Assembly (NCBI GenBank): GCA_963668625.2
Contig: CAXXKA010000008.1
Coordinates: 1,007,747 to 1,039,746 of the forward strand
Source of the DNA: an uncultured candidate division Zixibacteria bacterium
Lineage (GTDB): Bacteria > Zixibacteria > MSB-5A5 > UBA10806 > 4484-95
DNA length: 32,000 bases
Direction of reading: 5' to 3'
Of this stretch, positions 2 through 31,667 are shown in pieces; position 1 is the stretch's first letter; every line of letters begins with the position of its first letter. Under the pieces are notes generated by a model, which was not told where the DNA came from, did no database searches, and was given only the letters and a program-made list of their open reading frames with translations. The position numbers and the translations under genes are program-made.

Positions 2-2461
2 ATCGACATTACCATAGAGGATCCGGTTGTTCTTGAACCACCACCGGGAGCTTATATGGAACAGGAGGCCTGCGGTGATAGCACAAATAATACCGACCCG
101 ATCAACGAGGCGGAACTTATAAGTTGTGGCTATACCGTTTGTGGCGCTATCTGGGCGGATTACTTGGAAAATGAGAACGATTATACTGGTGACGCTGATT
201 TTTATACATTTACATTGGAGGACACTTACGAGCATTGGAAAGTTGATTTAACTGGAATGTCTGAATTTAGGACGAGGGTAGCCCTGTATGAGATTATTCC
301 GGATTTACCATTTCCAATGTGGTGGAATATTGAATCATTTTATCCGGGTCAGCCATTTGCCAATGAAATTACTGTTCGCCCGGGCACTTATTTATTGGCA
401 ATTTATCCAGCGAGACTAGCAGCCGACATCGTTTGCGATGATAACAGCCTTTACTATTTTCAACTCGACTGTGGCCCCATAGAACCGGGAGGACCAGTGA
501 ACGACTGGTGTGATGATGTAACACCGCGTCTTCTCGAAAGCGGTGATTCTCTGATTTTCACTGGCAACACCACTAACGCTACAATCGATTGTATTCAGAA
601 CGCACTGGTTCCAGATTTTGATATCATACCCACTCAAACCTTCTCTGGTGAAGTCTGGACAGCATTTACAACTACAGACACACTTGATGTGATTGTTGCT
701 TTTTGCGATTCTGATCCCAACTCGGTGGGTCAATGCGCTTCATTGCTTTATAATGATTGCCCTTGCGGCTACGATGGTGTTTCGGCCGATAGCTATAATT
801 ATTTATATTGTTCTGACGGCAGTTTAGCGTTGTATTTTAATGCTCTTCCCCCGGGAACGTACTATTATGAAATATTCAGAGATCTTGATATACTCGATGT
901 CACCGATTACAGGCTGGCTATCAGCGGCACTCTTTGTCCCCAACCGCAGCCGAATGATAACTGCGCGAATGCCATAGCTGTCTATGAGGATATACAAACT
1001 GAATTCAATACCACTTATGCCAGTTTTGATGGCCCCGGCTATTGCCTGGAATCGAAAAATGTCTGGTTTATATACGAGCCTGATGAAACCCATGCGGTGA
1101 GCGTGAGCTTGGAAGGGTCACGTTTTAACACCAAGATGGCTATTTACGAGGGGGGCGAGTGTCCTCCAAGTCAGGAATCGATGATCGAATGTAATAATAA
1201 TTACAACTCACTTTCCAATTTCTCGTATATCGAGTTCCTGGCAGTTGAAGGAACGCGATATTTGATCGAAGTCGGCGGGACAAACTTAGAAGCAAGAGGC
1301 GCCGGCTTTATGCTTATCTCCCCTATTGCCTCTCATGACGTACGCGTGGATAAGATAATCAGCCCCCTGCCGGGAAATATTCTCGATCCAGGAACGGACT
1401 ATGAATTAAACGCCATCGTTTCAAATAGAGGATTCTACGAAGAGACATTCAATGTAATTGCAGTTGACAATTATGGTTTCGAGTTAATCGAGGAATACAT
1501 TACGTTAGCCCCAGGCGAACAGACGAATTTATTCGAGGGCAATTTCTATACTTCTCCTTCCGAAACTTGCGAGGACCATGAATTTAAAGTAATAACATCG
1601 CTGAATAGTGATGAATTTACATCAAACGATACTTTCACTGTTACTTACAACATCCCTCGTGAAGGTGATATAAGGCATTATGGTTATTACACCGACGGTG
1701 AAGATGCATGGATAAGTGGCCCAGTGTTCTCCGAAATGATATCAGCGACTAAATTTGTTGCCGATGGGCGGGATGCGATTGTCTATATCGGTGGTAAATT
1801 CGCTAATACCACTTCGATCGATAGCACGATTGACCCGGTTAAGCTTTATCTTTTCCAGGATGATAACGATGACGGTTTCCCTGATGATGAACCGAGATTC
1901 GAGGCTGTCGTTCAGCTTCAGGGGATGGAATATAACTGGGTCTATGCTGTCTTACCGTGCGATGTAGTTGTTGACAGCGGCCAGGTTTTCTGGGTCGGCT
2001 TCGGTATAGTTAGAGATGGCCGTGAAGGCTTTGAGGGTATCTTCGTCGATGCTCATCCTGAGTGCGATAGCTCGTGGCTAAGGAGCCAATATGGCTATTG
2101 GGAGAGAAACGTTGAAGCTAACGGGGATAAGTTAATAGGCGCCTGGGCCTTGCCTGATTCTCTTACCGGTATCGATGATTGCGAGACGGGCTTACCGTTA
2201 TTCTATGGGCTGGCTCAAAATTACCCCAATCCTTTTAACGCCCGGACTGTAATACGTTACAACCTGGCTGAGCCTGGCTTAGCTACTATTACAATATTTG
2301 ACATTTTAGGACGAAAGGTCGAAACACTGGTTGACGATTACCAGACAGCAGGCCTTCATCAAGTTACCTGGAACGCAGGAGACTTTGCTTCCGGATTGTA
2401 TTACTATAGAATTCAGGTTGGTGACTATACTGAAACGAAAAATATGCTGCTTATGAAGTGA
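2..2461 (+). CDS. Secreted multidomain protein (PPC-like and CARDB-like regions) with C-terminal T9SS sorting domain; 5' end probably outside the window
   Basis: The frame is open from nt 2 with no stop before the first in-window ATG at 56. The product from M56 (MEQEACGDS...) has no signal peptide, although the C-terminus is a typical Por/T9SS tail (NYPNPFNARTVIRYNL...GLYYYRIQVGDYTETKNMLLMK). GDADFYTFTLE resembles a pre-peptidase C-terminal domain and HDVRVDKIISP...NAIVSNRG resembles CARDB. Confidence 0.8.
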   Translation: MDITIEDPVVLEPPPGAYMEQEACGDSTNNTDPINEAELISCGYTVCGAIWADYLENENDYTGDADFYTFTLEDTYEHWKVDLTGMSEFRTRVALYEIIPDLPFPMWWNIESFYPGQPFANEITVRPGTYLLAIYPARLAADIVCDDNSLYYFQLDCGPIEPGGPVNDWCDDVTPRLLESGDSLIFTGNTTNATIDCIQNALVPDFDIIPTQTFSGEVWTAFTTTDTLDVIVAFCDSDPNSVGQCASLLYNDCPCGYDGVSADSYNYLYCSDGSLALYFNALPPGTYYYEIFRDLDILDVTDYRLAISGTLCPQPQPNDNCANAIAVYEDIQTEFNTTYASFDGPGYCLESKNVWFIYEPDETHAVSVSLEGSRFNTKMAIYEGGECPPSQESMIECNNNYNSLSNFSYIEFLAVEGTRYLIEVGGTNLEARGAGFMLISPIASHDVRVDKIISPLPGNILDPGTDYELNAIVSNRGFYEETFNVIAVDNYGFELIEEYITLAPGEQTNLFEGNFYTSPSETCEDHEFKVITSLNSDEFTSNDTFTVTYNIPREGDIRHYGYYTDGEDAWISGPVFSEMISATKFVADGRDAIVYIGGKFANTTSIDSTIDPVKLYLFQDDNDDGFPDDEPRFEAVVQLQGMEYNWVYAVLPCDVVVDSGQVFWVGFGIVRDGREGFEGIFVDAHPECDSSWLRSQYGYWERNVEANGDKLIGAWALPDSLTGIDDCETGLPLFYGLAQNYPNPFNARTVIRYNLAEPGLATITIFDILGRKVETLVDDYQTAGLHQVTWNAGDFASGLYYYRIQVGDYTETKNMLLMK

Positions 2462-2540
2462 GACCCGAACGCAGGCAGTAGGATAACGGCTCATCAGCCC
2501 TGTGGCTGGTGAGCCTGTCGATTCCGATTTAAGGAGAATT

Positions 2541-3779
2541 ATGAAATACTTAAAAATTGTTTTGTTGGTAATGCTCTTAACGGCGTTTAGCTATACGATT
2601 GTAACTGCCCAGACAGTCGAGTTTGTCGGCAGTTATGATACACCGTCAATCGCCCGTGGTATTACTGTTACTGATAATTACGCTTATATTGCCTCAGGCT
2701 CATCGGGTTTGCTGATAGTAGATGTCTCCGATCCTGAAAATCCAGTATTTACAGGAAACTATCAAACATCAGGTACTGCCAATGATGTCTGTATCTCGGG
2801 AGATTACGCATATATAGCCGCCGGTTTTTCAGGCCTTCAGATAGTTAATATTTCCAATCCGGGCAGTCCATCACTTGCCGGCAGTTACAGTACTCCCGAT
2901 CGTGCTTTAACTGTTCAGGTTATAGGTAACTACGCATATATAGCCGACAGGGCTTCATTCCAGATAATTGACATTTCCGATCCAGAAAATCCCGCCTTAG
3001 CCGGGAGTTGGAACAATTCAGCAAATGATCTTACAAGCGTTAATGTCAGCGGAGATTATGCTTATTTGACCAGGTTAACATATGGACTGATTCTGGTGAG
3101 TATAACCGATCCTGAAAACCCAGAATATGTAGGCGAGTACTACAATGGAAGTAACACCACCTATGACGTTCATGTCTCCGGCGATTACGCCTTTGTGGTT
3201 GATGGGTCATCACTGAAAATGATTAATACTTTTATCCCAAACGCTCCTACACTTTACGCGACGTGTTATGATTTGTCGATTGCGAAGAGTGTTTATGTTT
3301 CGGCCGGTTACGCTTATGTAGCCGACTTTGATTACGGGCTTCACGTGATATATAATCCTGATCCATTTCATCTTACATATATCACGGGTTATGAGACGAC
3401 CGAACATGTCTATGACGTTTTTGTTTTAAATGAATACATTTATATAACTGAGGGATCTTCTCTTTTGATTTTAAGATATTCTCAGGTTGATATTAATGAA
3501 GAATTCAACCTGCCACAGGAGTTTTCACTATCGGGTAATTATCCCAACCCTTTTAACTGTTCTACGGTCATATCATATGAGCTGAAACAACCCACAGCGA
3601 TCAGGCTTGATATCTATGATCTTTTAGGTCGCCGTATTGAGACGCTGGTTAATGAATACCAGCAAGCGGGCCAACACCGAATCACCTGGGATGCAACAGG
3701 TGTCAACTCCGGCGTTTATTTCTATAAAATGCAGACAAATGAATATACTGAAATGAATAAAATGATATTGTTGAAGTAA
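2541..3779 (+). CDS. LVIVD-repeat beta-propeller protein with signal peptide and T9SS C-terminal sorting domain
   Basis: ATG at 2541 follows AAGGAG (2531-2536). N-terminus MKYLKIVLLVMLLTAFSYTIVTA is signal-like. Units like YAYIA..GLLIVDVSDPENP recur about 7 times. The tail is NYPNPFNCSTVISYEL...GVYFYKMQTNEYTEMNKMILLK. The GTG extension to 2502 is unlikely. Confidence 0.85.
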   Translation: MKYLKIVLLVMLLTAFSYTIVTAQTVEFVGSYDTPSIARGITVTDNYAYIASGSSGLLIVDVSDPENPVFTGNYQTSGTANDVCISGDYAYIAAGFSGLQIVNISNPGSPSLAGSYSTPDRALTVQVIGNYAYIADRASFQIIDISDPENPALAGSWNNSANDLTSVNVSGDYAYLTRLTYGLILVSITDPENPEYVGEYYNGSNTTYDVHVSGDYAFVVDGSSLKMINTFIPNAPTLYATCYDLSIAKSVYVSAGYAYVADFDYGLHVIYNPDPFHLTYITGYETTEHVYDVFVLNEYIYITEGSSLLILRYSQVDINEEFNLPQEFSLSGNYPNPFNCSTVISYELKQPTAIRLDIYDLLGRRIETLVNEYQQAGQHRITWDATGVNSGVYFYKMQTNEYTEMNKMILLK

Positions 3780-11443: not shown

Positions 11444-12181
11444 CTATTTCCAATGCAAAGCCTCCGTGAACCTTTTCGCCAGCGAGGGATCGCGTTCCAA
11501 TGCGTTACCAACGACAACCATCGAGGCGCCCGCTTCAGCCAATTTGCCGGCATACTCGGGATCGGTGATACCACCGCCGACCATCACCGGTATATCGACA
11601 TATTCACCTACTGCAGTAACCATATCCTCGGGCACCGGATACAACGCCCCTGAGCCTGCCTCCAGATAGATAAGTTTCATCCCCAGGTATTGCCCGGCCA
11701 GGGCATGAGCGCAGGCGATCTCAGGCTTATCACGAGGGATCGGTAAGGTATTCGAGAGATACGACACCGAGGTTAACACGCCTGATTCGATCAACATATA
11801 GCCTGTCGGGATAGTTTCCAGGTTCAGAGCTTTAATCATCGGAGCCGATTTAACGTGCTCCTCTATAAGAAGATTCGGATTTCGTCCTGAAATAAGCGAG
11901 AGATACAGGATAGCATCGGCATTAGCGCAAACATTGGAGGATGAGGCCGGGAATAATATCACCGGTTTATCCGTAGCTTTTTTCACCTCGGATAAGGTGT
12001 GCTCGAATTTGTTTGCCATCATAAGGGATGAGCCGAACAGGAAAGCATCCGCGCCGGCGTTCTCGTAATCGGAAACCAGAGATATTAAATCATCGCCCGA
12101 TTTACGGTCGGGATCAAGAAGTACAAGAAAGCAACAACCATGACGCTCTCTTGCTTTCAATAAACTATCATAAACTGTCAT
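11444..12181 (-). CDS. Geranylgeranylglyceryl/heptaprenylglyceryl phosphate synthase family (PcrB/GGGPS) prenyltransferase
   Basis: TIM-barrel family pattern: ...FLVLLDPD..., ...YLEAGSGA...VGGGI...VVVGNA.... The start ATG overlaps the alaS stop (ATGA at 12178-12181). Confidence 0.8.
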   Translation of the reverse strand: MTVYDSLLKARERHGCCFLVLLDPDRKSGDDLISLVSDYENAGADAFLFGSSLMMANKFEHTLSEVKKATDKPVILFPASSSNVCANADAILYLSLISGRNPNLLIEEHVKSAPMIKALNLETIPTGYMLIESGVLTSVSYLSNTLPIPRDKPEIACAHALAGQYLGMKLIYLEAGSGALYPVPEDMVTAVGEYVDIPVMVGGGITDPEYAGKLAEAGASMVVVGNALERDPSLAKRFTEALHWK

Positions 12182-14896: not shown

Positions 14897-16042
14897 TTAT
14901 CTCTCCAAATCCGTGGATACCAGCTTGTATGATTCGGGTAACCATCTAACTACATGCTTATGATTTGATGCATTTTCGGCGAACACGGGGGCATTGCCTC
15001 TTTCAACAACCTCTACTTCCACGTTTTTATCAAACTTCACCAGTATCAAAGATTCTAGATGGATTTCGGATTTTATCATCTGTTCGGAGTTATCGATATT
15101 ATCAACAACCACAATAAGTGTATCGTTTTCCAATAATGAATTAGAAAGCAAATCAAGGCTGGCGACTATATGATCGGACATGCGCTGTTTTTCCCGGAAA
15201 AGATCGGATAATATCCCGATCGCGGTAAAATTGCCTGCAATATAAAATATTGTAAAAGCCAATAAAGTTTTTCTAATTCCCCAAAACTTAAATCGGCTGT
15301 TATAGAGGTTGTTTAAAAAGTAGGCAACAATCAATAACACACCGGGCACAGCTGAATACATATAGCGTGAGATTGGCCTGCCGGGGAAAATATCGAACAG
15401 GTTCAGATCCATCTTAAAAACTGACACTGTCGATAGAAACATTATTGACCATGCTCCGAAAAACAGCAAGCTCTTATTCCTACTTTTTATTAGTAGGATA
15501 AAAAATATCGGTACAACTATAGAAACAATCACTTTTATAGATTTTAATACCCACAGATAACTTTCCGGGAACATAACCGCCGCCCTTTGGGATATTGGAA
15601 CAGCGATATATCCTAGATAATACCAGATGTTCACGAAAACTTTCATATTAACTTCAATATCCTGATCAACGAAAGTTTGTGTTTTAAAATAAAAAAACAG
15701 ATAAAGTGAATATAACAGTATCATGATGATAGAATAGGGTATTAATTTTAATCGAAATGAATTCTTGGAATACAAAATTACAATAGTAAAAAACAAACCA
15801 ATCGTTACGAATCCTGATTCTTTAAATAAGACTGCACTGAGTCCCAAAAACAGGAGATATAAAAAGCTAATCGGACCGGGATTATCTATAAAATCAAATG
15901 TCTTTATAGCAAACAATAACGACAAAGCAGTGACCCAAAGATCACCGGAGCTGGATATCCAAAGCAGAATGGGGGAATTCAAATAGTAGAAAGAAAACAG
16001 AAAAACAGCAGTTATTCCTACTGATTTTTTAATATTTAGTTT
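14897..16042 (-). pseudogene. C-terminal part of a GT-C fold (ArnT/PMT-like) membrane glycosyltransferase, separated from its N-terminus by an IS4-family insertion
   Basis: Polytopic membrane protein. Its frame continues exactly from the N-terminal fragment once the IS and one TSD copy are removed (...WKLTDKLN|IKKSVGITAVF...). Confidence 0.75.
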
Positions 16043-17308
16043 CACTAGTGTCCGGGCTTTGAGGCTGGCTTGACAGACCTCCTATAATAAGGGTGTAAAC
16101 GCTAATTATAACACCTTTGTTTACAGGAGGTTAAAAATGCAAGGGAAGGTTACAATACTTCGCCAGATAACGCAAATGATTTCTCGATACGATTTCCAAA
16201 AAGCAGTTTCGACTGGCAAAGGGCGGCATTTCACGGTTTCTTTCGGCTACTGGTCGCACCTGGTGGCGATGATATTCGGGCAATTATCGGAGCAGCAATC
16301 GCTGCGTGATCTGGTCTTGAATCTTTCCCGTCAGGCGCATAGGTTTTACCATCTGGGTATGTCAAAGATACGCCGTTCGACTTTTTCGGATGCCAACAAT
16401 CATCGGCCCTCGGCAATATACGAGAACTTGTTTTACATATTATTGAATCGTTACGGTTGTCATTTTCAAGGCAAAAACCGGAAGCTGGGGAATAAATTAT
16501 ACTCAGTTGATTCGACGGTCATAGATTTGTGTCTGGGGTTATTTTATTGGGCTAAATTCAGAACGACCAAGGCCGGTGTCAAGCTTCATGTCAGGTTAAA
16601 CCATGATGGTTACATCCCTGATTTTGCGGTTGTCACCAATGCCAATATTCATGATTCCAGAGTCAGGAAGATGTTCAATTTACCGGCTGGCAGTATCGTG
16701 ACTTTCGACAAAGGCTACAATGACTACAGTCTTTTCAAGTTATTAAATGATAAGGGGATAATCTTTGTCACGCGGCAGAAGAATAACGCTAAATACAAAG
16801 TAATCAAACGGTGTAGAACTAATCGTAAGCAAGGAGTCACCTCCGATCATTGGATTGAATTTACCGGTTTTTACTCCAAGCAAAAATGTTCGATTAGGCT
16901 GAGACGAATCCGTTATATCGATAAAGAAACCGGTAAAGTTTATGTATTCCTGACCAATGATTTCAAACATGCCGCCTCGACTATTGCCGACATTTATAAG
17001 CAGCGCTGGCAGATAGAATTGTTTTTTAAAGCGTTAAAACAGAACCTTGTGATCAAGACTTTCTGGGGTACCTCCAAGAACGCAGTATATTCCCAGATCT
17101 GGGTGGCTTTGATAATCTATTTGTTAATGAGCGCGCTGAAATACAAATACAAAATATCGGCCTCAGTTGGAAAGTTAATTCAGAGAATCCGGTCATTCGT
17201 GTTTGAAAAAGATGATGTCCTGAGATTCCTTAAAGACCAAATACCAATCCCAATACAAATCGCTCAAACATCTCAAATTAACCTGTCCCTAAAGGCCGGA
17301 CACTAGTG
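16043..17308 (+). mobile_element. IS4-family insertion sequence (1266 bp) with 22-bp terminal inverted repeats and a 9-bp target site duplication
   Basis: Left end CACTAGTGTCCGGGCTTTGAGG, right end (reverse complement) CACTAGTGTCCGGCCTTTAGGG, 19/22 identical. The direct repeat ATTTAGTTT lies at 16034-16042 and 17309-17317. Confidence 0.92.
16137..17306 (+). CDS. IS4-family DDE transposase
   Basis: 389 aa with a DDE_Tnp_1-like core (VDSTVIDL..., FDKGYNDY...) and the IS4 Y-x2-R-x3-E-x6-K signature (YKQRWQIELFFKALKQ). The ORF ends inside the right IR. Confidence 0.9.
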   Translation: MQGKVTILRQITQMISRYDFQKAVSTGKGRHFTVSFGYWSHLVAMIFGQLSEQQSLRDLVLNLSRQAHRFYHLGMSKIRRSTFSDANNHRPSAIYENLFYILLNRYGCHFQGKNRKLGNKLYSVDSTVIDLCLGLFYWAKFRTTKAGVKLHVRLNHDGYIPDFAVVTNANIHDSRVRKMFNLPAGSIVTFDKGYNDYSLFKLLNDKGIIFVTRQKNNAKYKVIKRCRTNRKQGVTSDHWIEFTGFYSKQKCSIRLRRIRYIDKETGKVYVFLTNDFKHAASTIADIYKQRWQIELFFKALKQNLVIKTFWGTSKNAVYSQIWVALIIYLLMSALKYKYKISASVGKLIQRIRSFVFEKDDVLRFLKDQIPIPIQIAQTSQINLSLKAGH

Positions 17309-17626
17309 ATTTAGTTTATCTGTCAATTTCCAGAAGAGATAAACATTAGCTGCATGCAATAAAATACTCATGAAACTATGAAAGTAAGCGTTAACGCCGA
17401 ATATAAAATACCATAGGAAATTAGCCCACAAACTCAAAGGCCTGAAATAACCGTAAATAATGCTTCTTTGAAAGAATATCTCCGGATTACTTAATGCTAT
17501 CTTGGAATAAGATAAACACAACCAATCATCTCCTATAAATTGACGGCTTAAAAACGGCAGATAAAATACGATAGCTAGTGAAACGATAAAATAAACAGCA
17601 TGCTTTTCTACACTTAGTGTTTTCAT
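17309..17626 (-). pseudogene. N-terminal part of the IS-disrupted GT-C glycosyltransferase
   Basis: MKTLSVEKHAVYFIVSLAIVFYLPF...IGDDW...YFRPLSLWANFLWYFIFGVNAYFHSFMSILLHAANVYLFWKL is typical of the first TM helices and loop of ArnT/PMT_2-type enzymes. The annotated stop (17303-17305) lies inside the IS inverted repeat. Confidence 0.75.
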
Positions 17627-17846
17627 TAGAGAGCCTCTCCAATCTCCGGAATACACCGATAAAGCAAGATTATAATTCAGGTATTTTTCAACACCATGTT
17701 ATAGAGAATGTAAGGCGCGTTCTTTCTACTATAGTATAAGTGTTAACAATAGTCGATTTATGTATGATATTATAATTCGGTATTTCCCGTACCGATTCCG
17801 CACTATTATAATTGCATAAAGGAAAACTCGGATGCGAGAAATAAAT

Positions 17847-20190: not shown

Positions 20191-21654
20191 TTACTTTATC
20201 AGTATCATGCGACGGGTATTAGTATAATCGCGACTTGTCATCCTGTAGAAATACGAACCGGATGCAACCGGTTTACCCGATTGTGCCCGACCATTCCAAT
20301 CGAACGCGTAATGTCCCGGCAATTTATACTCATCCAATACCGTTTTTACGAGTTGTCCCCGGATATTAAATATCCGTATCAGCACCGGCCCGGCTTTCGA
20401 AACATTATAAGATATTTTTGTAGAACCATTGAACGGATTAGGATAATTTGCCTCGAGGGAGGTGGCAACAGGCAAAGAATTTCCCGTAACACCTACATCA
20501 TTTAATATATCATCCAAAGCGGTTATGAAACTCTCCATCTCGGTCATGGTACCGGTGGATACCCTGATATGATTCTGCAGTCCCCAGCCGGTTCGCACAC
20601 TCACGCCTCGTTGGTTGAGTAAATTGGCCAATTGAGCCGAATCGAATTCGGTTTCAAGTAAAAAGAAATTAGTTTGCGAGGGCACATATCTCATCTCGTT
20701 CTGATCGAAATAATCGAAACAGTAGGCTTTGGCCTCGTTATTTAGCGTAACCGTATTATCTATATGTTCCTGATCCTCGAGCGCGGCGATAGCTGCAGCT
20801 TGCGACAGCCTCGTAATCGAGGCGTATATCAGCCACGATTGCATCTGCGAGATCAACTCTTGCCTTCCGATAGCATAACCGATACGCAATCCTGCCAGAC
20901 CGTATACTTTTGAAAACGTTCTTATAACGATGACTTTCCGATCATCCTGAACTAACCGTATTGCGGTCTCATACGAGGGATCATCCACGTACTCGTGATA
21001 CGCCTCATCGATAATGGCAACGACCTGCGAGGGCAAGTTATCGACAAAATCCTCGATATCATCGGCGGAAAGTACCCTGCCGGTCGGATTGTTGGGATTA
21101 GTAATAATCACCGCCTGGGTAGAGCTATCCACTCGGGAGGCCATATCATCCAGATCGATATCGTAATTACCATCGAGATAAGAATAATGGATATCAGCGC
21201 CTATCAAATCGGCATCCGAGGGGAACTGGCTGTATGAGGGATAGGGTGAAACTATATTATTGCCGCCGGTAATAAAAGACAGAGCCGCCAGGCGCAGGAT
21301 TTCGGTGGCGCCACAACCGGCTATCACCTGGCCAGAGTTAACATCATGACTATTGGCCAGATAGTTTTTAAGCCCGCCGGCATACCAGTCGGGGTAGCGA
21401 TGGCTCATATCGATATTGTCGGAAATCGCTTGCATCGCCAGCGGAGATGGCCCCAGCGAGTTCTCGTTATAACAGAGCCTGTTAACATAATCGGTTAATA
21501 CCGGGAAATCATCCCGTCCGGTGTGATTCTCGGAAAAAATCGGCGCGGTATTAAATAGCGAAAAGGCGGCGCTTCCAGCAACCAGCCCTAAAAACTTACG
21601 CCTCGATAACTCTTCCCTGATATTACCGGTGGTGTGTTTCTTATCCATATACAC
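20191..21654 (-). CDS. HisC-like class I/II PLP aminotransferase with N-terminal twin-arginine (Tat) signal and C-terminal T9SS sorting domain
   Basis: SRRKFLGLVAGSAAFSLF fits the Tat consensus. The aminotransferase core has ITNPNNPTG, IIDEAYHEY and RTFSKVYGLAGLRIGYAIG (PLP lysine motif). The last 88 aa (20194-20457) are NYPNPFNGSTKISYNV...GSYFYRMTSRDYTNTRRMILIK. Confidence 0.85.
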   Translation of the reverse strand: MYMDKKHTTGNIREELSRRKFLGLVAGSAAFSLFNTAPIFSENHTGRDDFPVLTDYVNRLCYNENSLGPSPLAMQAISDNIDMSHRYPDWYAGGLKNYLANSHDVNSGQVIAGCGATEILRLAALSFITGGNNIVSPYPSYSQFPSDADLIGADIHYSYLDGNYDIDLDDMASRVDSSTQAVIITNPNNPTGRVLSADDIEDFVDNLPSQVVAIIDEAYHEYVDDPSYETAIRLVQDDRKVIVIRTFSKVYGLAGLRIGYAIGRQELISQMQSWLIYASITRLSQAAAIAALEDQEHIDNTVTLNNEAKAYCFDYFDQNEMRYVPSQTNFFLLETEFDSAQLANLLNQRGVSVRTGWGLQNHIRVSTGTMTEMESFITALDDILNDVGVTGNSLPVATSLEANYPNPFNGSTKISYNVSKAGPVLIRIFNIRGQLVKTVLDEYKLPGHYAFDWNGRAQSGKPVASGSYFYRMTSRDYTNTRRMILIK

Positions 21655-21774
21655 CTCCGTAAAATAAATAGATAATACTGACTATGTCCTGTTATATAAC
21701 AAGTTACCAGTCGTTAAAATATAACATTTTCGGGGAAATAGTCAAGATATATGCCGATATAGTAAAAGAAGTGC

Positions 21775-21813: not shown

Positions 21814-21887
21814 GGCGGAGTAGCTCAGTCGGTTAGAGCAGAGGAATCATAATCCTCGTGTCCGGGGTTCAAGTCCCTGCTCCGCTA
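21814..21887 (+). tRNA. tRNA with CAT anticodon (elongator Met, or Ile2 if lysidine-modified); integration target
   Basis: Cloverleaf: GGCGGAG TA GCTC AGTCGGTTA GAGC A GAGGA ATCATAA TCCTC GTGTC CGGGG TTCAAGT CCCTG CTCCGCT A. It is 74 nt with no encoded CCA. The anticodon stem lacks the three G-C pairs of initiator tRNA. Confidence 0.93.
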
Positions 21888-21986
21888 CTTTTTATCTTGC
21901 TGAACGACAATATGTTATAGGCCTCCTTCTTCAGGTTGGATTTATCACTTTTTATCCCACGGTAACATAGCGGTAACAAAATAGCT

Positions 21987-22043: not shown

Positions 22044-23099
22044 CTAATACGGGAGTTTACTTAGCATTTCGTCTTTGTGATCAGGTGCCAAATGTGAGTA
22101 TATCATTGTCGTCTCAATCTGGGCATGTCCAAGAAGCTTTTGCAACGTGAATATTGGCACATTAACCATTGCCAAATGGCTGGCAAACGTATGCCTGAAT
22201 GTATGGCATGTAGCCCACGGCAGGCCTATCGAAGTGAGAGTCTTTGATATGAATCTGCCTACCCACCATTCTCGCCACTGCGGTTGCTCCTTGCCATGGC
22301 TATCAAATGGCCCAAACACTTTACCATCGCTTCTTCGCTTCATCGATTTCAACATGTCCCGAAGTCCCGGTGAGTACTTGAATGGTAGTATACGATTACG
22401 TTTACCCTTGGCATTGATCCCTCTTATGACAAGCTGGTTTCTTTTAAAATCGATATCGTCCCAGGTTAACGAAAGCGCTTCACCTAACCGTGTTCCAGTA
22501 CCCAGATAGAAATCAACTAACTCCGCAAAGGATGTATCCTTAAATTTATCCTTCACCCTGCTGATCTCTTCCAAGCTCAGGTATCGTGGGTACTCTGACT
22601 GCGGCACTCTAATGTACCGGATTTTATCTAACGGGTTTTTATCCAGCATCTCCCATCGGACAGCTGTATTAAATGCAACTTTCAGATGACGGAATTCGAG
22701 GTTTACGGTTGATGGCGCAATTCCATTATCTAATCTGTGTTTCCGATAGTTCTCCATCGTCAAAGGCCGTATCGAACGGATTTCCTTATTACCAACAAAT
22801 TCAAGCAAATGCTGAAGTATTCTACGTTCACGTATTACCGTACGTGGTGCCTTCACCTGATTTGAATGATCCAAATACTCATCGATAAACTGACTCAACT
22901 TTATAACCTCATCATTCGACTCAATTGGTTTTCCCTCAGCCAATAGAGAGCAAACTTGATGAAAGACTTTATCAGCGGTACGTTTATCACAATTGCCGAT
23001 TTTAAAGGTTTTCTGCACACCATTCTCCCAATAAAAGATCCGCCAACAGTGCTTACCAGATTTATACTTCCGCTTAACCAGAGAAGGCACCTCAATCAC
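22044..23099 (-). CDS. int: Tyrosine site-specific recombinase (phage-type integrase)
   Basis: Catalytic signature: GTGTRLGEAL (Arg), HTFRHTFASHL (H-x-x-R), LLGHAQIETTMIYSHL (His and Tyr). It lies next to a tRNA gene. Confidence 0.93.
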   Translation of the reverse strand: MIEVPSLVKRKYKSGKHCWRIFYWENGVQKTFKIGNCDKRTADKVFHQVCSLLAEGKPIESNDEVIKLSQFIDEYLDHSNQVKAPRTVIRERRILQHLLEFVGNKEIRSIRPLTMENYRKHRLDNGIAPSTVNLEFRHLKVAFNTAVRWEMLDKNPLDKIRYIRVPQSEYPRYLSLEEISRVKDKFKDTSFAELVDFYLGTGTRLGEALSLTWDDIDFKRNQLVIRGINAKGKRNRILPFKYSPGLRDMLKSMKRRSDGKVFGPFDSHGKEQPQWREWWVGRFISKTLTSIGLPWATCHTFRHTFASHLAMVNVPIFTLQKLLGHAQIETTMIYSHLAPDHKDEMLSKLPY

Positions 23100-26619: not shown

Positions 26620-27498
26620 CTAAAATAAGGTGGAATTTCTAAGTATTAGTCCATTATTTTTCTGTTTAATCGATTCCTTTTTTGAATTTAAATTATAAAC
26701 CTCATAAGGCGTCTTGCCGTTTAAGGCCTGATGGAAACGTTCGGTGTTGTAGAATTCGAAATACCTCTTCAAACCGAGGTAAGCCTCCGCCGGCGTCTGG
26801 TAATCGTGAAGATAAACCTCCTCGTACTTGACCGATCTCCACAGACGCTCGACAAAAATATTGTCAAGATACCGACCGCGACCGTCCATGCTGATAGCGA
26901 TCCGCTTGTCTTGCAGTACACCGGTGAAATCCTTGTCGGTAAACTGTGTTCCCTGATCGCTGTTGAATATCTCCGGCTGTTTGCCATCCAACGATTCCTC
27001 CAATGCCTCCACGCAGAAAGAGCTCTCAAGAGTATTGGACAAACGCCAGGCAAGAACGTAACGCGAGAACCAATCAATCACTGCCGCCAGATAGAGAAAG
27101 CCCCGGCTAAGACGAATATACGTGATATCGGCGCTCCAGACCTGGTCAACATGATCAATCAGGACATCGCGTAAAAGATACGGATATATCTTGTTAGACG
27201 GACAAGGCTTGCTCGTATTTGGTTTAGGGTAAACAGCTTGAAGACCCATAATCCTCATCAGACGTTCAACCCGCTTGTGATTTATATCATATCCCTGAGA
27301 CTTTAGACAGAGTGTCATCTTAGGACTGCCGTAAAACGGGGTCCTGGTATATTGATCGTCAAGCAGACGCATAAGTGTCAGGTTCAAATCGCTTTCCCCA
27401 GTAGGCCGGTAGTAGTAGCTTGAACGGGGAAGCCCCAAAAGCTGGCACTGACGGCTAATTGAAATGTCCGGGTTTGATCGTTCCACCAGATTCCTCAA
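26620..27498 (-). CDS. IS3-family transposase OrfB (rve/DDE integrase core)
   Basis: WSADITYI...NSDQGTQFT...ERLWRSVKYEEVY is typical of IS3 DDE cores. The frame is open upstream to the A-run (TAA AAA AAA GGA...). Confidence 0.9.
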   Translation of the reverse strand: MRNLVERSNPDISISRQCQLLGLPRSSYYYRPTGESDLNLTLMRLLDDQYTRTPFYGSPKMTLCLKSQGYDINHKRVERLMRIMGLQAVYPKPNTSKPCPSNKIYPYLLRDVLIDHVDQVWSADITYIRLSRGFLYLAAVIDWFSRYVLAWRLSNTLESSFCVEALEESLDGKQPEIFNSDQGTQFTDKDFTGVLQDKRIAISMDGRGRYLDNIFVERLWRSVKYEEVYLHDYQTPAEAYLGLKRYFEFYNTERFHQALNGKTPYEVYNLNSKKESIKQKNNGLILRNSTLF

Positions 27499-29159: not shown

Positions 29160-31667
29160 ATGAAACCACAATCCATAGTAATTTTAATGAATCAAAAACT
29201 TATTCAAGAAGTATTCTCAACATTAAAGAAAGGAGAATTTATCAGGCTTGCCTGGGAAGATGAAAATGAAAAGTTCCATAAGACTGGAACACAAAATTAT
29301 GAACAATTCATATCAAAAGTAGATGAATTAAAATCCTTCCCTTATATTGCTAGTATTTGGTTTACCCCCAATCCCAGCAATTCACCATCATCACATACTC
29401 AGGATGATATTACCCGAGCCCACTGGGTATATGTCGATATTGATGATGTCTCCCCCGAAGAATTCCTACAAAAATACGATTATATCAAACCAACCTATAC
29501 TGTAGCCACCGGCCATGGAGTCCAGCTTTATTGGAAGTTGAAACGCCCCATAGCTATACCTAATGAACAATGGCAAGCCATAGAAAATGCAATAAAACGC
29601 AAATTCCATGGAGAAAAGGGTGAATCATGTTCATTGCTAAGGGTACCTGATACACCAAACCGCAAGCATCTTATTGAGAAGCATAGAAAAAAGGGCTATA
29701 CGGTTGAAACTAAATGTGAAGTCATTGGATTTTGTGATGAAGAATATGATCTTGATGATTTTATCGAAGCAGGTTTGGATATTGATAATCAGCCCACGGA
29801 GATCGTGACAAGCCCTACAGCTAAACGTTCTCTCGATGACCTGAAACGAATACGCCAGTATTGTCCAGCTATAAACGAAGCCTTTTTATCGATAGAAAAT
29901 AACAAAGGTAACGAAAAGACAATCGGTCATTACAAACGCCTGGCAGTAGCCAGCATGATAAAACATACAATCGATGATGAAAAATATCTGTTGAAATTAT
30001 TCAGCAAGGTATCTGATTTTGATCCTCAAAAAACTTTAAAGTATTACAGAAGTCTGGATAAATGGCCTTTTACCTGTGCAAAACTACAGGAAAAAGAACT
30101 ATGTAGTGAAACTTGCCAATTGATGACAGACCTCAACAAAAAAAGTCCTATAGTATTCGCATATCGCTCCGGTGTTCAATTGAAAACTACCGATACCTTA
30201 TTAAATGAAACCGAGAATGATAGTAGTTTCAAAGAGTTGATGAAGCGCGTAAAATCCATTGAAAACCCGGTAAATCAGGAAAAACTGATAAGCAAGGTTA
30301 TTGCCGAAACCGGCATAAACAAATCTTCTATCAACCGTTATATGAAAAAGATCAAAGTTCGAGATGATATTAAATCATACATCGTCAACGGTGAAGTTGA
30401 TCCCGTGAAAGCGGCGATATATATAATCAGGCAATACCAGCTAATGCGATATCAACAGGATTTCTATAAATATCAGGATGGAATATGGGAGCTTATGCCT
30501 CAGGAGGAAGTCGAGTCGTTAATTCATCACGAGATCAAACAGTATTCGGACAACCATACAATAAGCGAGGTCATAAATGCAGTCAAAAGAGAGGCTTTAA
30601 TTAAACCCAACACGGTTGATAAAGCCCAGGGTAAGTATTGGATAGCAGCCAGCAACGGATTATTAGATGCAGAAACGAAAGCTCTTCGCGATTTTACGCA
30701 GGAAGACTACAGGTTCATCAAAATGAACGCGAAATATAATGCGGCAGCTGATTGTCCTGTCTTTAAAGAATTTTTACGCGAGTTGTTCATGTACGACACT
30801 GATGCCGCTGATAAACGTAAACTCGTTCAGGAGATATTCGGCTATCTGCTGATACCCGACTACTCTCTCATAAAGAAGATGTTTTATTTCTACGGGCCGA
30901 AAGCTAACAACGGCAAATCATCGTTAATTGAAATCATACGATCAGTAATGGGGCCAGGGTATTTTGATAGTGTCCCCATGGATAAATTGAATGGATTTTT
31001 ATTGAAACGGCTGCAGGGAAAACATGCTAACGTCGTAGGTGACCAGGATGCGTATACGAAGGTGCCTGACGGCATATTGAAACAATTGATTGGCGGCATG
31101 GATGAAATCACAGCGGATGTGAAATACAAGGACGCTATTACGTTCACTAATTATGCGAGATTGATATTTGCCGTTAATAAACTGCCGTTTTCAGAAGCGA
31201 AAGACGAAGGTTATTTTACCCGAGCCGTAATCCTAACGTTCAATAACCAGTTTTTAATAAATCCTGATCGTAAGGATCACCGGCAAATGAAAGCCGACGT
31301 TGAGAAAATACAATACATAAAGGATAATGAAAAAGAAGGTATTCTCAACTGGATGCTGGAGGGTTTGAGCAGATTGCTGGCAAACAAGAAACTAACGATT
31401 CCCACTTCATCAGAATCAGCTGTGAAGGATTACAAAACAAACAACAACAGTATATTGTTATTTGTTGGCGATAACTGTCAGCTAGGACCTACTTTCCAAG
31501 TGAGTCAATCTGAGTTGTATACGAATTACAGAGGCTGGTGCCAGGACCAGGGATTTAAAGGCTATGCGAATTCGGTCACGTTTTATGATTTGCTTGAGAG
31601 GGAGTACAAGGTTGTTCGACAGAGAACCAAAAATTCACGACGTCTTGTAGGAATTAAATTAACCTGA
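29160..31667 (+). CDS. Bifunctional primase-polymerase (AEP prim-pol) / SF3 helicase (P4 alpha / D5 family) replication protein
   Basis: N-terminus: VYVDIDD, TGHGVQLYWKL and LLRVPDTPNRKH (AEP catalytic motifs). C-terminus: Walker A FYGPKANNGKSS, then GKHANVVGDQDAY...LKQLIGGMDEITADVKYKDAITFTNYARLIFAVNKLP...FTRAVILTFNNQF, matching the P4-family primase C-terminal domain. Confidence 0.9.
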   Translation: MKPQSIVILMNQKLIQEVFSTLKKGEFIRLAWEDENEKFHKTGTQNYEQFISKVDELKSFPYIASIWFTPNPSNSPSSHTQDDITRAHWVYVDIDDVSPEEFLQKYDYIKPTYTVATGHGVQLYWKLKRPIAIPNEQWQAIENAIKRKFHGEKGESCSLLRVPDTPNRKHLIEKHRKKGYTVETKCEVIGFCDEEYDLDDFIEAGLDIDNQPTEIVTSPTAKRSLDDLKRIRQYCPAINEAFLSIENNKGNEKTIGHYKRLAVASMIKHTIDDEKYLLKLFSKVSDFDPQKTLKYYRSLDKWPFTCAKLQEKELCSETCQLMTDLNKKSPIVFAYRSGVQLKTTDTLLNETENDSSFKELMKRVKSIENPVNQEKLISKVIAETGINKSSINRYMKKIKVRDDIKSYIVNGEVDPVKAAIYIIRQYQLMRYQQDFYKYQDGIWELMPQEEVESLIHHEIKQYSDNHTISEVINAVKREALIKPNTVDKAQGKYWIAASNGLLDAETKALRDFTQEDYRFIKMNAKYNAAADCPVFKEFLRELFMYDTDAADKRKLVQEIFGYLLIPDYSLIKKMFYFYGPKANNGKSSLIEIIRSVMGPGYFDSVPMDKLNGFLLKRLQGKHANVVGDQDAYTKVPDGILKQLIGGMDEITADVKYKDAITFTNYARLIFAVNKLPFSEAKDEGYFTRAVILTFNNQFLINPDRKDHRQMKADVEKIQYIKDNEKEGILNWMLEGLSRLLANKKLTIPTSSESAVKDYKTNNNSILLFVGDNCQLGPTFQVSQSELYTNYRGWCQDQGFKGYANSVTFYDLLEREYKVVRQRTKNSRRLVGIKLT

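Follow-up and report, generated by a model that had tools for sequence, protein, structure and literature searches.

A HisC-like aminotransferase family that combines a predicted twin-arginine signal with a type IX sorting domain

The stretch of DNA analyzed here, hereafter the window, comprises 32,000 nucleotides from an uncultured bacterium of candidate division Zixibacteria (GenBank assembly GCA_963668625.2, contig CAXXKA010000008.1, positions 1,007,747 to 1,039,746 of the forward strand). Its minus strand carries a gene for a protein of three parts, namely, an N-terminal signal peptide with a twin-arginine motif, a pyridoxal 5'-phosphate (PLP)-dependent aminotransferase core similar to histidinol-phosphate aminotransferase (HisC), and a C-terminal domain (CTD) of the kind termed type IX secretion system (T9SS) type A sorting domains. 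This combination was pointed out in an earlier note made from the DNA letters alone, and all the motifs quoted there (IITNPNNPTG, IIDEAYHEY, RTFSKVYGLAGLRIGYAIG and ELSRRKFLGLVAGSAAFSLF) are found in the open reading frame (ORF). Here, we report an analysis of this protein and its relatives, with an emphasis on the conservation of the two targeting signals and on the possibility that the enzyme is exported by twin-arginine translocation (Tat) and T9SS in succession.

The mechanically delimited ORF (20191..21654, minus strand) encodes 487 amino acids and starts with GTG. This GTG falls within the Shine-Dalgarno sequence GGAGGTG, an ATG lies at 21648, five bases after GGAGG, and the 485-amino-acid product of the latter is also that of the database gene call (P0001, 100% identical, on a 1.398-Mb contig); the ATG is therefore the likely start codon. 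The earlier note was concerned that the true start might strip off the arginine pair, and no plausible start does so, given that the motif is retained with either codon. Residue numbers below refer to the 485-residue protein, except for the Pfam range of the core, which is that of the 487-residue ORF. About 70 bases upstream of the start codon lies a promoter-like site, found in a scan that returned 11 sites against 5.3 expected in shuffled sequences. Table 1 gives the coordinates of these and the other features.

Table 1. Features of the aminotransferase gene and of the two other genes for CTD proteins in the window
Feature	Position	Strand	Details
Coding sequence of the tripartite protein	20191..21648	-	485 amino acids plus stop; mechanical ORF reaches GTG at 21654
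Shine-Dalgarno GGAGG	21654..21658	-	five bases upstream of ATG 21648; read from sequence
Promoter-like site TTGACT, 16-nucleotide spacer, TATATT with TG extension	21718..21745	-	10 of 12 positions matched; a consensus match only
Predicted Tat signal peptide, residues 1-39	21532..21648	-	polar n-region, SRRKFL, h-region, no lipobox Cys
Twin-arginine motif S15-R16-R17-K18-F19-L20	21589..21606	-	no variation at R16, R17 and F19 among 42 aligned members
Fold-type I (class I/II) PLP aminotransferase core, HisC/PtaA type	20515..21480	-	PF00155, model confidence, fold matches
Codon of Schiff-base lysine K247, motif RTFSKVYGL	20908..20910	-	aligns with E. coli HisC K214
Flexible linker DVGVTGNSLPVATSLEAN, core to CTD	20446..20499	-	low model confidence at 386-389; variable in 42-member alignment
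T9SS type A sorting domain, 84 amino acids, YPNPFN...TRRMILIK	20194..20445	-	runs to the stop codon
CTD protein, no other domain recognized, no signal peptide identified	56..2461	+	TIGR04183 44.6 bits; tail 45% identical
LVIVD-repeat beta-propeller with classical Sec-type signal peptide and same CTD type	2502..3779	+	passes TIGR04183

The core matches the Pfam family Aminotran_1_2 (PF00155) over residues 59-380 with 167.8 bits (E = 5e-49; gathering threshold 19.7). An alignment with E. coli HisC shows every residue that binds PLP, and the two arginines that anchor the substrate, to be conserved: Y85, N187, D214, Y217, T244, S246, K247, R255, R352 and R362 of the window protein correspond to Y55, N157, D184, Y187, T211, S213, K214, R222, R322 and R335, respectively, and K247 is present in all 82 relatives compared below. 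An AlphaFold (AF2) model built from the family alignment has a mean predicted local distance difference test score (pLDDT) of 83, with most of the core above 90 and the CTD at 80-94; the signal peptide, the N-terminal arm of the mature protein and the linker around residues 386-389 are the only parts of low confidence. The best fold matches of the model are 3ly1 (target-normalized TM-score 0.89), 3get, 3ffh and Rv3772, and, by sequence, the closest proteins of solved structure are HisC proteins (3ffh, E = 2e-44). Judged by these residues and this fold, the protein appears to be a catalytically intact PLP enzyme of the HisC/PtaA superfamily and looks active.

The curated equivalog models assign it no identity. 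The best NCBIfam score is that of hisC (TIGR01141), at 261.7 bits against a cut-off of 276.55, followed by PRK09105 (230.7 against 444), PtaA (NF051461; 209.5 against 500), CobD (172.5 against 290.55) and the GntC cyclodehydratase model, which scores 136 bits and also falls short. Four exported relatives that were scanned, three of them with a Tat signal only and one with both signals from the second subclade (see below), reached no cut-off either, and there are no his genes in the window or in the related loci inspected. The substrate pocket appears altered as well. The position of E. coli HisC D85, which we take to be a contact of the imidazole ring and, with Y110, R322 and R335, presumably a pocket residue, is a threonine (T115) in 18 of the 19 clade members, while Y139, R352 and R362 are kept in the window protein; six further residues (W88, A114, Q141, H295, G354 and W355) vary little or not at all within the clade and are not conserved in cytoplasmic HisC. 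Thus, the earlier description of the core as HisC-type holds for its HisC-like fold-type I architecture and does not extend to a bona fide HisC. With two substrate-anchoring arginines retained in a pocket that differs from that of HisC, the substrate probably bears a carboxylate or phosphate group.

Beyond the core, the chain has no regular secondary structure from the linker until the CTD, which ends at the last residue of the protein. Scanned alone, the tail reaches 38.0 bits with TIGR04183 (cut-off 23), over positions 2-70 of the 72 in the profile, and 28.2 bits with Por_Secre_tail (PF18962; cut-off 27). The last 93 residues, modeled on their own, form a beta-sandwich of six to seven strands with a pLDDT of 96.5. 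Its best match in the Protein Data Bank (PDB) is Porphyromonas gingivalis PorU with its own CTD (6za2; E = 4e-5, query-normalized TM-score 0.77), followed by PorZ (5m11), immunoglobulin (Ig)-like domains of FlgD, and the substrate chains NucA (8glk_D) and RemZ (8gl8_D) of T9SS translocon complexes. The tail assignment on which the earlier note had made its proposal depend is thus borne out by both T9SS profiles and by a fold like that of the PorU, PorZ and NucA CTDs. The tail is 40-45% identical to those of the two proteins at 56-2461 and 2502-3779, which the earlier note had likened to it, and all three tails pass TIGR04183. The tail model detects further CTD proteins in related loci, among them such typical extracellular proteins as a GH18 chitinase, a BNR/sortilin protein and beta-helix proteins, and also FG-GAP proteins, always with the CTD at the C-terminus or within about a dozen residues of it; where their N-termini are readable, they are of the type recognized by the general secretory (Sec) pathway, with the single exception of a DUF362 protein at locus L017. 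At another related locus (L008:622-10691), four CTD genes follow one another, and the aminotransferase gene is one of them; the other three encode two beta-helix-repeat proteins and one FG-GAP/VCBS-like protein, all with Sec-type signals.

The tripartite protein is a member of a conserved family. A search that covered 5.8 billion proteins returned at least 120 clusters, 45-100% identical to the query, all of which have Pfam matches to the core and a CTD-type family; the architecture is common to at least 120 clusters at 45-73% identity. Nearly all of these listed clusters are about 480 amino acids long; those with a named source come from 'candidate division' bacteria and Candidatus Eisenbacteria metagenome-assembled genomes (MAGs) and carry generic annotation only. 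A genome scan with one genome per species found matches over the full length, CTD included, in Zixibacteria, Eisenbacteria, Ignavibacteria, Marinimicrobia, Krumholzibacteria, Stahlbacteria, WOR-3 and Gemmatimonadota as well as in one MAG labeled Lentisphaeria and several unclassified MAGs. The best of them, 60% identical to the window protein, comes from a Zixibacteria MAG. In a 50%-identity library, the family reduces to about three full-length representatives (P0040, P0221 and P0222) plus fragments; it is, then, widespread but compact. A frameshift or assembly join, which the earlier note named as a possible source of the fusion, is excluded by the 120 listed homologues, every one of which has a CTD-type match and nearly every one the same length: the fusion recurs in at least 120 clusters and at 19 genome loci from about ten lineages, in one clade. 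The Zixibacteria MAG Gpa_9 encodes two aminotransferase paralogues with both signals (L009, and L023, which is the same as L001), 48% and 60% identical to the window protein, respectively.

We classified 82 relatives by simple rules based on the N-terminal motif and the length of the tail, which yielded 19 proteins with Tat signal, core and CTD, 20 with Tat signal and core only, and 43 without a signal. The Tat-only group includes sequences from Flavobacteriaceae, Cytophagales, Roseobacteraceae, Latescibacteria, Terriglobia and Woeseiaceae. In a tree built from the core domain alone by neighbor-joining only, the 19 proteins with both signals form a single clade in 200 of 200 bootstrap replicates, apart from the 20 Tat-only and the 43 cytoplasmic relatives. 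The subclade that holds the window protein is recovered equally often (200 of 200). Given this single clade, the aminotransferase family seems to have retained its two targeting signals from its origin on.

Two cysteines of the family deserve mention. C59 (21472-21474), in GRLCYNENPLGPS, is invariant in the 42-member alignment and present in three inspected sequences of the second subclade; neither the Tat-only relatives inspected nor E. coli HisC have it. C310 (20719-20721) is invariant only in the Zixibacteria/Eisenbacteria subclade. A family-wide disulfide between the two as a mark of extracytoplasmic location is unsupported, C310 being absent in the three second-subclade sequences (L007, L015 and L017).

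For the Tat signal, hidden Markov model (HMM) evidence from the window sequence alone is weak, whereas the evidence at the level of the family is strong. Across 42 aligned members that span 45-73% identity, R16, R17 and F19 are the only invariant columns of the signal peptide, the rest of the n-region being unalignable, and a [ST]-R-R-x-F motif is found in nearly every full-length member, with visibly shortened gene calls as the exceptions. Scanned individually, the N-termini of 27 of the 42 match Pfam TAT_signal (PF10518) and those of 29 match TIGR01409 at E <= 0.1; no other family recurs. Low hydrophobicity of the h-region is a hallmark of Tat signals, and the h-region of the window protein is weakly hydrophobic and rich in Gly, Ala and Ser. 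On the Kyte-Doolittle scale, the most hydrophobic stretch of 12 residues averages 1.64 +/- 0.20 in the family (1.78 in the window protein), compared to 2.79 +/- 0.18 for nine Sec-type signals of other CTD proteins from the same lineages, without overlap between the two sets (p = 3e-6). Furthermore, the matches to the PRK09105 and PtaA profiles begin at residue 14-15 of the window protein and so take in the signal peptide, the PtaA profile being aligned from residue 15 and covering the arginine pair. The c-regions of signal peptides are variable as a rule; in the second subclade (L007, L008, L010-L016 and L032), the signal peptide ends in a conserved LPG[IV]GR[IV][KQ]A in members from Ignavibacteria, Marinimicrobia, WOR-3, Stahlbacteria and Krumholzibacteria.

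The same pair of signals occurs on an unrelated protein. In the gemmatimonadotal sequence CP070758, about 3.4 kb downstream of the aminotransferase gene, a DUF362 protein (L017:10839-12212, plus strand) carries a Por_Secre_tail CTD along with the motif TRREFL. Among its homologues (P0121-P0159), this layout is found in about 35 clusters, with the arginine pair in all that are full-length, and sister DUF362 forms either lack the CTD and resemble Tat lipoproteins or have a dockerin in place of the CTD. By its sequence features, DUF362 thus appears to be a second, independent family with a Tat signal and a T9SS CTD. That two unrelated families of passengers bear the same two signals makes a functional hand-over from Tat to T9SS more likely than a coincidence.

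On this evidence, we consider it probable, though by no means assured, that the HisC/PtaA-like enzyme is exported in two steps, by Tat and then by T9SS, and acts outside the cell. From the sequences and the structural models we infer the use of both machineries, the final location, the oligomeric state in transit and the kind of substrate. The enzyme would fold and bind PLP in the cytoplasm, as a homodimer by homology, and the Tat translocase would carry it, folded, across the inner membrane by virtue of the SRRKFL signal peptide, as suggested by the sequence and by the precedent of PtaA. Signal peptidase I would then remove the signal peptide near residue 39. The 84-residue beta-sandwich on its flexible linker would, to judge from the domain match and the predicted fold, be recognized as a type A CTD, and the T9SS translocon would pass the folded enzyme across the outer membrane, after which the CTD would be cleaved and the enzyme anchored at the surface or released. 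Outside the cell, it could perform transamination or related PLP chemistry on a substrate with an anionic anchor group (carboxylate or phosphate), in parallel to PtaA, which tailors an exported metabolite in the periplasm. Such a route is mechanistically plausible because T9SS moves folded proteins, its genes have been reported in several phyla of the Fibrobacterota-Chlorobiota-Bacteroidota (FCB) group other than Bacteroidota, and secretion is described as requiring the CTD, which apparently suffices for it even with green fluorescent protein as the passenger (PMC11285876); in addition, the type II secretion system (T2SS), the other two-step system for folded proteins, accepts Tat substrates and oligomers (PMC9251779).

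Several considerations weigh against this two-step route. According to reviews, T9SS effectors all have Sec-dependent signal peptides (PMC10202324, PMC12398890, PMC11285876, PMC9251779), as does every experimentally verified cargo (PMC10202324, PMC12398890, PMC11285876), and the predictor T9GPred, derived from 102 verified cargo proteins, requires 'no Tat signal' (bioRxiv 10.1101/2023.03.31.535141). Full-text literature searches found no report of a Tat-dependent T9SS cargo and nothing on T9SS in Zixibacteria, and no tat, por, gld or spr genes (among them tatA/tatC, porK/L/M/N, sprA/sov, porU and porV) were detected among the larger ORFs of the 32-kb window with Pfam and NCBIfam. The TIGR01409 score of the window protein itself is 13.1 bits, below the cut-off of 16.7, which is why the family-level evidence is needed. 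Neither three long contigs nor the ORFs of 18 loci with both signals, compared all against all, brought out a recurrent neighbor of the aminotransferase gene that would hint at a substrate. Finally, an obligate dimer of about 85 kDa with two CTDs would be an unusual T9SS passenger, an extracellular transaminase requires an external keto-acid or amino donor to recycle PLP and pyridoxamine 5'-phosphate (PMP), and the CTD also scores 32.8 bits with FlgD_ig (cut-off 27), a generic Ig-like fold.

This last score, slightly above the 28.2 bits of Por_Secre_tail, favors the main alternative, namely, that the enzyme is a Tat substrate that stays in the periplasm like PtaA, its Ig-like tail tethering it to peptidoglycan or a component of the outer membrane or serving in assembly. 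We regard this as unlikely, albeit deserving of serious attention: FlgD is among the top fold matches of the tail, the T9SS machinery of this genome is itself presumed, known T9SS cargo is uniformly Sec-dependent (PMC10202324), and the Tat-only relatives are evidently periplasmic. A mere tether, however, sits poorly with a TIGR04183 cut-off exceeded by 15 bits over the full profile length, with a domain that is exactly C-terminal in every member and best matched in structure by a genuine T9SS CTD, with the presence of the same domain, at 40-45% identity, on other window proteins and on Sec-type hydrolases and adhesins of these lineages, or with the dockerin, an extracellular module, that occupies the position of the CTD in DUF362 sisters. 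A different alternative accepts secretion as proposed and replaces the transaminase by a decarboxylase, lyase or cyclodehydratase of the HisC/CobD/GntC superfamily. It would dispense with the external amino acceptor, and it draws on the matches to the CobD threonine-phosphate decarboxylase (172 bits) and GntC (136 bits) models, on the lack of any equivalog above cut-off, and on the clade-specific invariant residues W88, T115, Q141, H295, G354 and W355, which point to a remodeled pocket. Nevertheless, the top scores are those of the transaminase models hisC, PRK09105 and PtaA (262, 231 and 210 bits), and the residues required for transamination in HisC are all retained, so that we consider this improbable.

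An ordinary Sec signal with a chance pair of arginines would turn the protein into a conventional Sec-dependent T9SS cargo, in agreement with all known cargo and with the sub-threshold Tat score of the window protein. This is very unlikely in view of a motif that stays invariant across 42 members at 45-73% identity while neighboring positions vary, of an h-region hydrophobicity far below that of the Sec signals on other CTD cargo, and of matches to Tat-signal HMMs in most members (27-29 of 42); moreover, a fold-type I PLP dimer is a typical cofactor protein of the Tat type, as shown for PtaA (PMC6206403). Hardly credible, lastly, is an artefact, be it a chimeric or frameshifted fusion of hisC with the tail of a secreted-protein gene next to it or an ordinary cytoplasmic hisC with a mis-called start. 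The mechanical GTG start is indeed unlikely to be the true one, and metagenome assembly carries a general risk; against this stand the same in-frame fusion in independent clusters from many samples and phyla, a gene order in common with a Zixibacteria MAG, confident modeling of core and CTD in one chain, the missed hisC cut-off and the lack of his genes nearby.

If the two-step route is real, the enzyme could interconvert amino and keto acids outside the cell, or aminate or deaminate a secreted metabolite or a polymer at the surface. The PLP enzymes known to work outside the cytoplasm are few (PtaA and PvdN); a rare extracellular member would extend their range to the cell surface or the medium, and the rule that T9SS cargo is exclusively Sec-dependent would be overturned. 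An aminotransferase family that has both signals across about ten lineages, together with DUF362, argues that Tat substrates can reach T9SS. More tentatively, it is possible, if somewhat short of probable, that FCB bacteria other than Bacteroidota run a general Tat-to-T9SS route for folded cofactor enzymes, with at least two passenger families and with PLP chemistry outside the cell. If Tat substrates do reach T9SS, lists of cargo drawn up for FCB bacteria would systematically under-count cofactor-containing enzymes, and the T9SS translocon would need to admit a PLP enzyme that is already assembled, probably as a dimer. Export of the enzyme by this path also raises the questions of how PLP and PMP would be recycled extracellularly and what amino or keto compound is transformed by these bacteria of sediment and groundwater, most of them uncultured.

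The neighbors of the aminotransferase gene are a tRNA-Met gene, an integrase gene and pcrA/uvrD, and the window shares with the Zixibacteria locus L001 the order of aminotransferase, uvrD/pcrA, alaS, pcrB, a SIS gene and a flippase gene, with one extra cupin gene. No siderophore genes are present in the window or in the compared loci. Clustering of the neighbors at the 18 loci found only antisense-ORF artefacts and common two-component regulators; genes for B12-radical SAM and DUF362 proteins lie near some aminotransferase loci, inconsistently. Histidine-kinase genes are located within a few kilobases of the aminotransferase gene at L003, L005, L015 and L017, and sigma-54 response-regulator genes at L010, L015 and L017; given how common such genes are, their presence near five loci from different phyla could be due to chance.

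Upstream of the aminotransferase gene, tRNA-Met (21814-21888, plus strand) is followed by a tyrosine integrase gene (22044-23099, minus strand), four ORFs without a family match and, further on, genes for an IS3-type rve transposase (26620-27498, minus strand) and a D5-like primase/helicase (29160-31667, plus strand). The segment 21814-31667 is probably a mobile element that has inserted at tRNA-Met and lies immediately upstream of the aminotransferase promoter. Between alaS and pcrA (14897-17656), there is an IS4-type DDE transposase gene (16137-17306, plus strand) flanked by orphan ORFs (14897-16045 and 17303-17656, both on the minus strand); since the syntenic locus L001 has nothing there, this segment looks like a recent insertion. 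A gene of the PcrB family, similar to geranylgeranylglyceryl-phosphate synthases (11444-12181, minus strand), adjoins alaS and the SIS-domain gene, and is kept at L001:15181-15918, an arrangement possibly relevant to the archaeal-type lipid genes reported in FCB bacteria. Near its orthologue of the aminotransferase, L001 has a cluster (L001:3607-6234, minus strand) of genes for a nucleotidyl (NTP-) transferase, a CobD-like PLP decarboxylase (TIGR01140, 162 bits, below cut-off) and a CDP-alcohol phosphatidyltransferase, which is absent from the window; the second aminotransferase beside that orthologue is CobD-like and not a hisC product.

Comparison with known systems sets the architecture in context. 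With HisC (PDB 3ffh, 1fg3/1gex), the window protein shares the fold (target-normalized TM-scores 0.72-0.89), the PLP-binding residues and the anchoring arginines; unlike HisC, it carries a signal peptide, is encoded outside a his operon, falls below the equivalog cut-off and shows changes in the pocket. The closest structure, 3ly1, is that of an uncharacterized 'putative HisC' from Pectobacterium. Among exported enzymes, the nearest parallel is periplasmic transaminase A (PtaA) of fluorescent Pseudomonas, a 'normal' PLP transaminase that is exported by Tat, folded and with its cofactor, tailors pyoverdine in the periplasm, and is present also in species that do not make pyoverdine (PMC6206403). 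Like PtaA and PRK09105, the window protein has a HisC-like fold-type I PLP core behind an N-terminal twin-arginine signal; unlike them, it scores far below the respective cut-offs, belongs to a clade apart from the sampled Tat-only relatives, lies outside any siderophore gene context and adds a T9SS sorting domain.

That domain resembles the type A CTDs of T9SS cargo (RgpB, ChiA and NucA) and those of PorU and PorZ, in being an Ig-like beta-sandwich of about 85 residues at the extreme C-terminus. Known T9SS cargo differs from the window protein in having a signal of the Sec type rather than the Tat type and in coming from the experimentally studied Bacteroidota, to which this host lineage does not belong; in contrast to the hydrolases, adhesins and proteases among such cargo, the passenger here is a metabolic enzyme with a bound cofactor and, by homology, a dimer. 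The known precedent for a two-step route is provided by the Tat-dependent substrates of T2SS, for which Tat operates at the inner membrane and a second machine takes a folded, even oligomeric, protein across the outer membrane (PMC9251779). The outer-membrane machine is a different one, and the T2SS signal is conformational, whereas that of T9SS is a discrete C-terminal domain. The statement in the earlier note that no characterized example of the architecture is known thus applies to one half of it: with PtaA exported by Tat and characterized (PMC6206403), and with Tat-only relatives widespread, the Tat half is of a known kind, and the new part is the T9SS tail.

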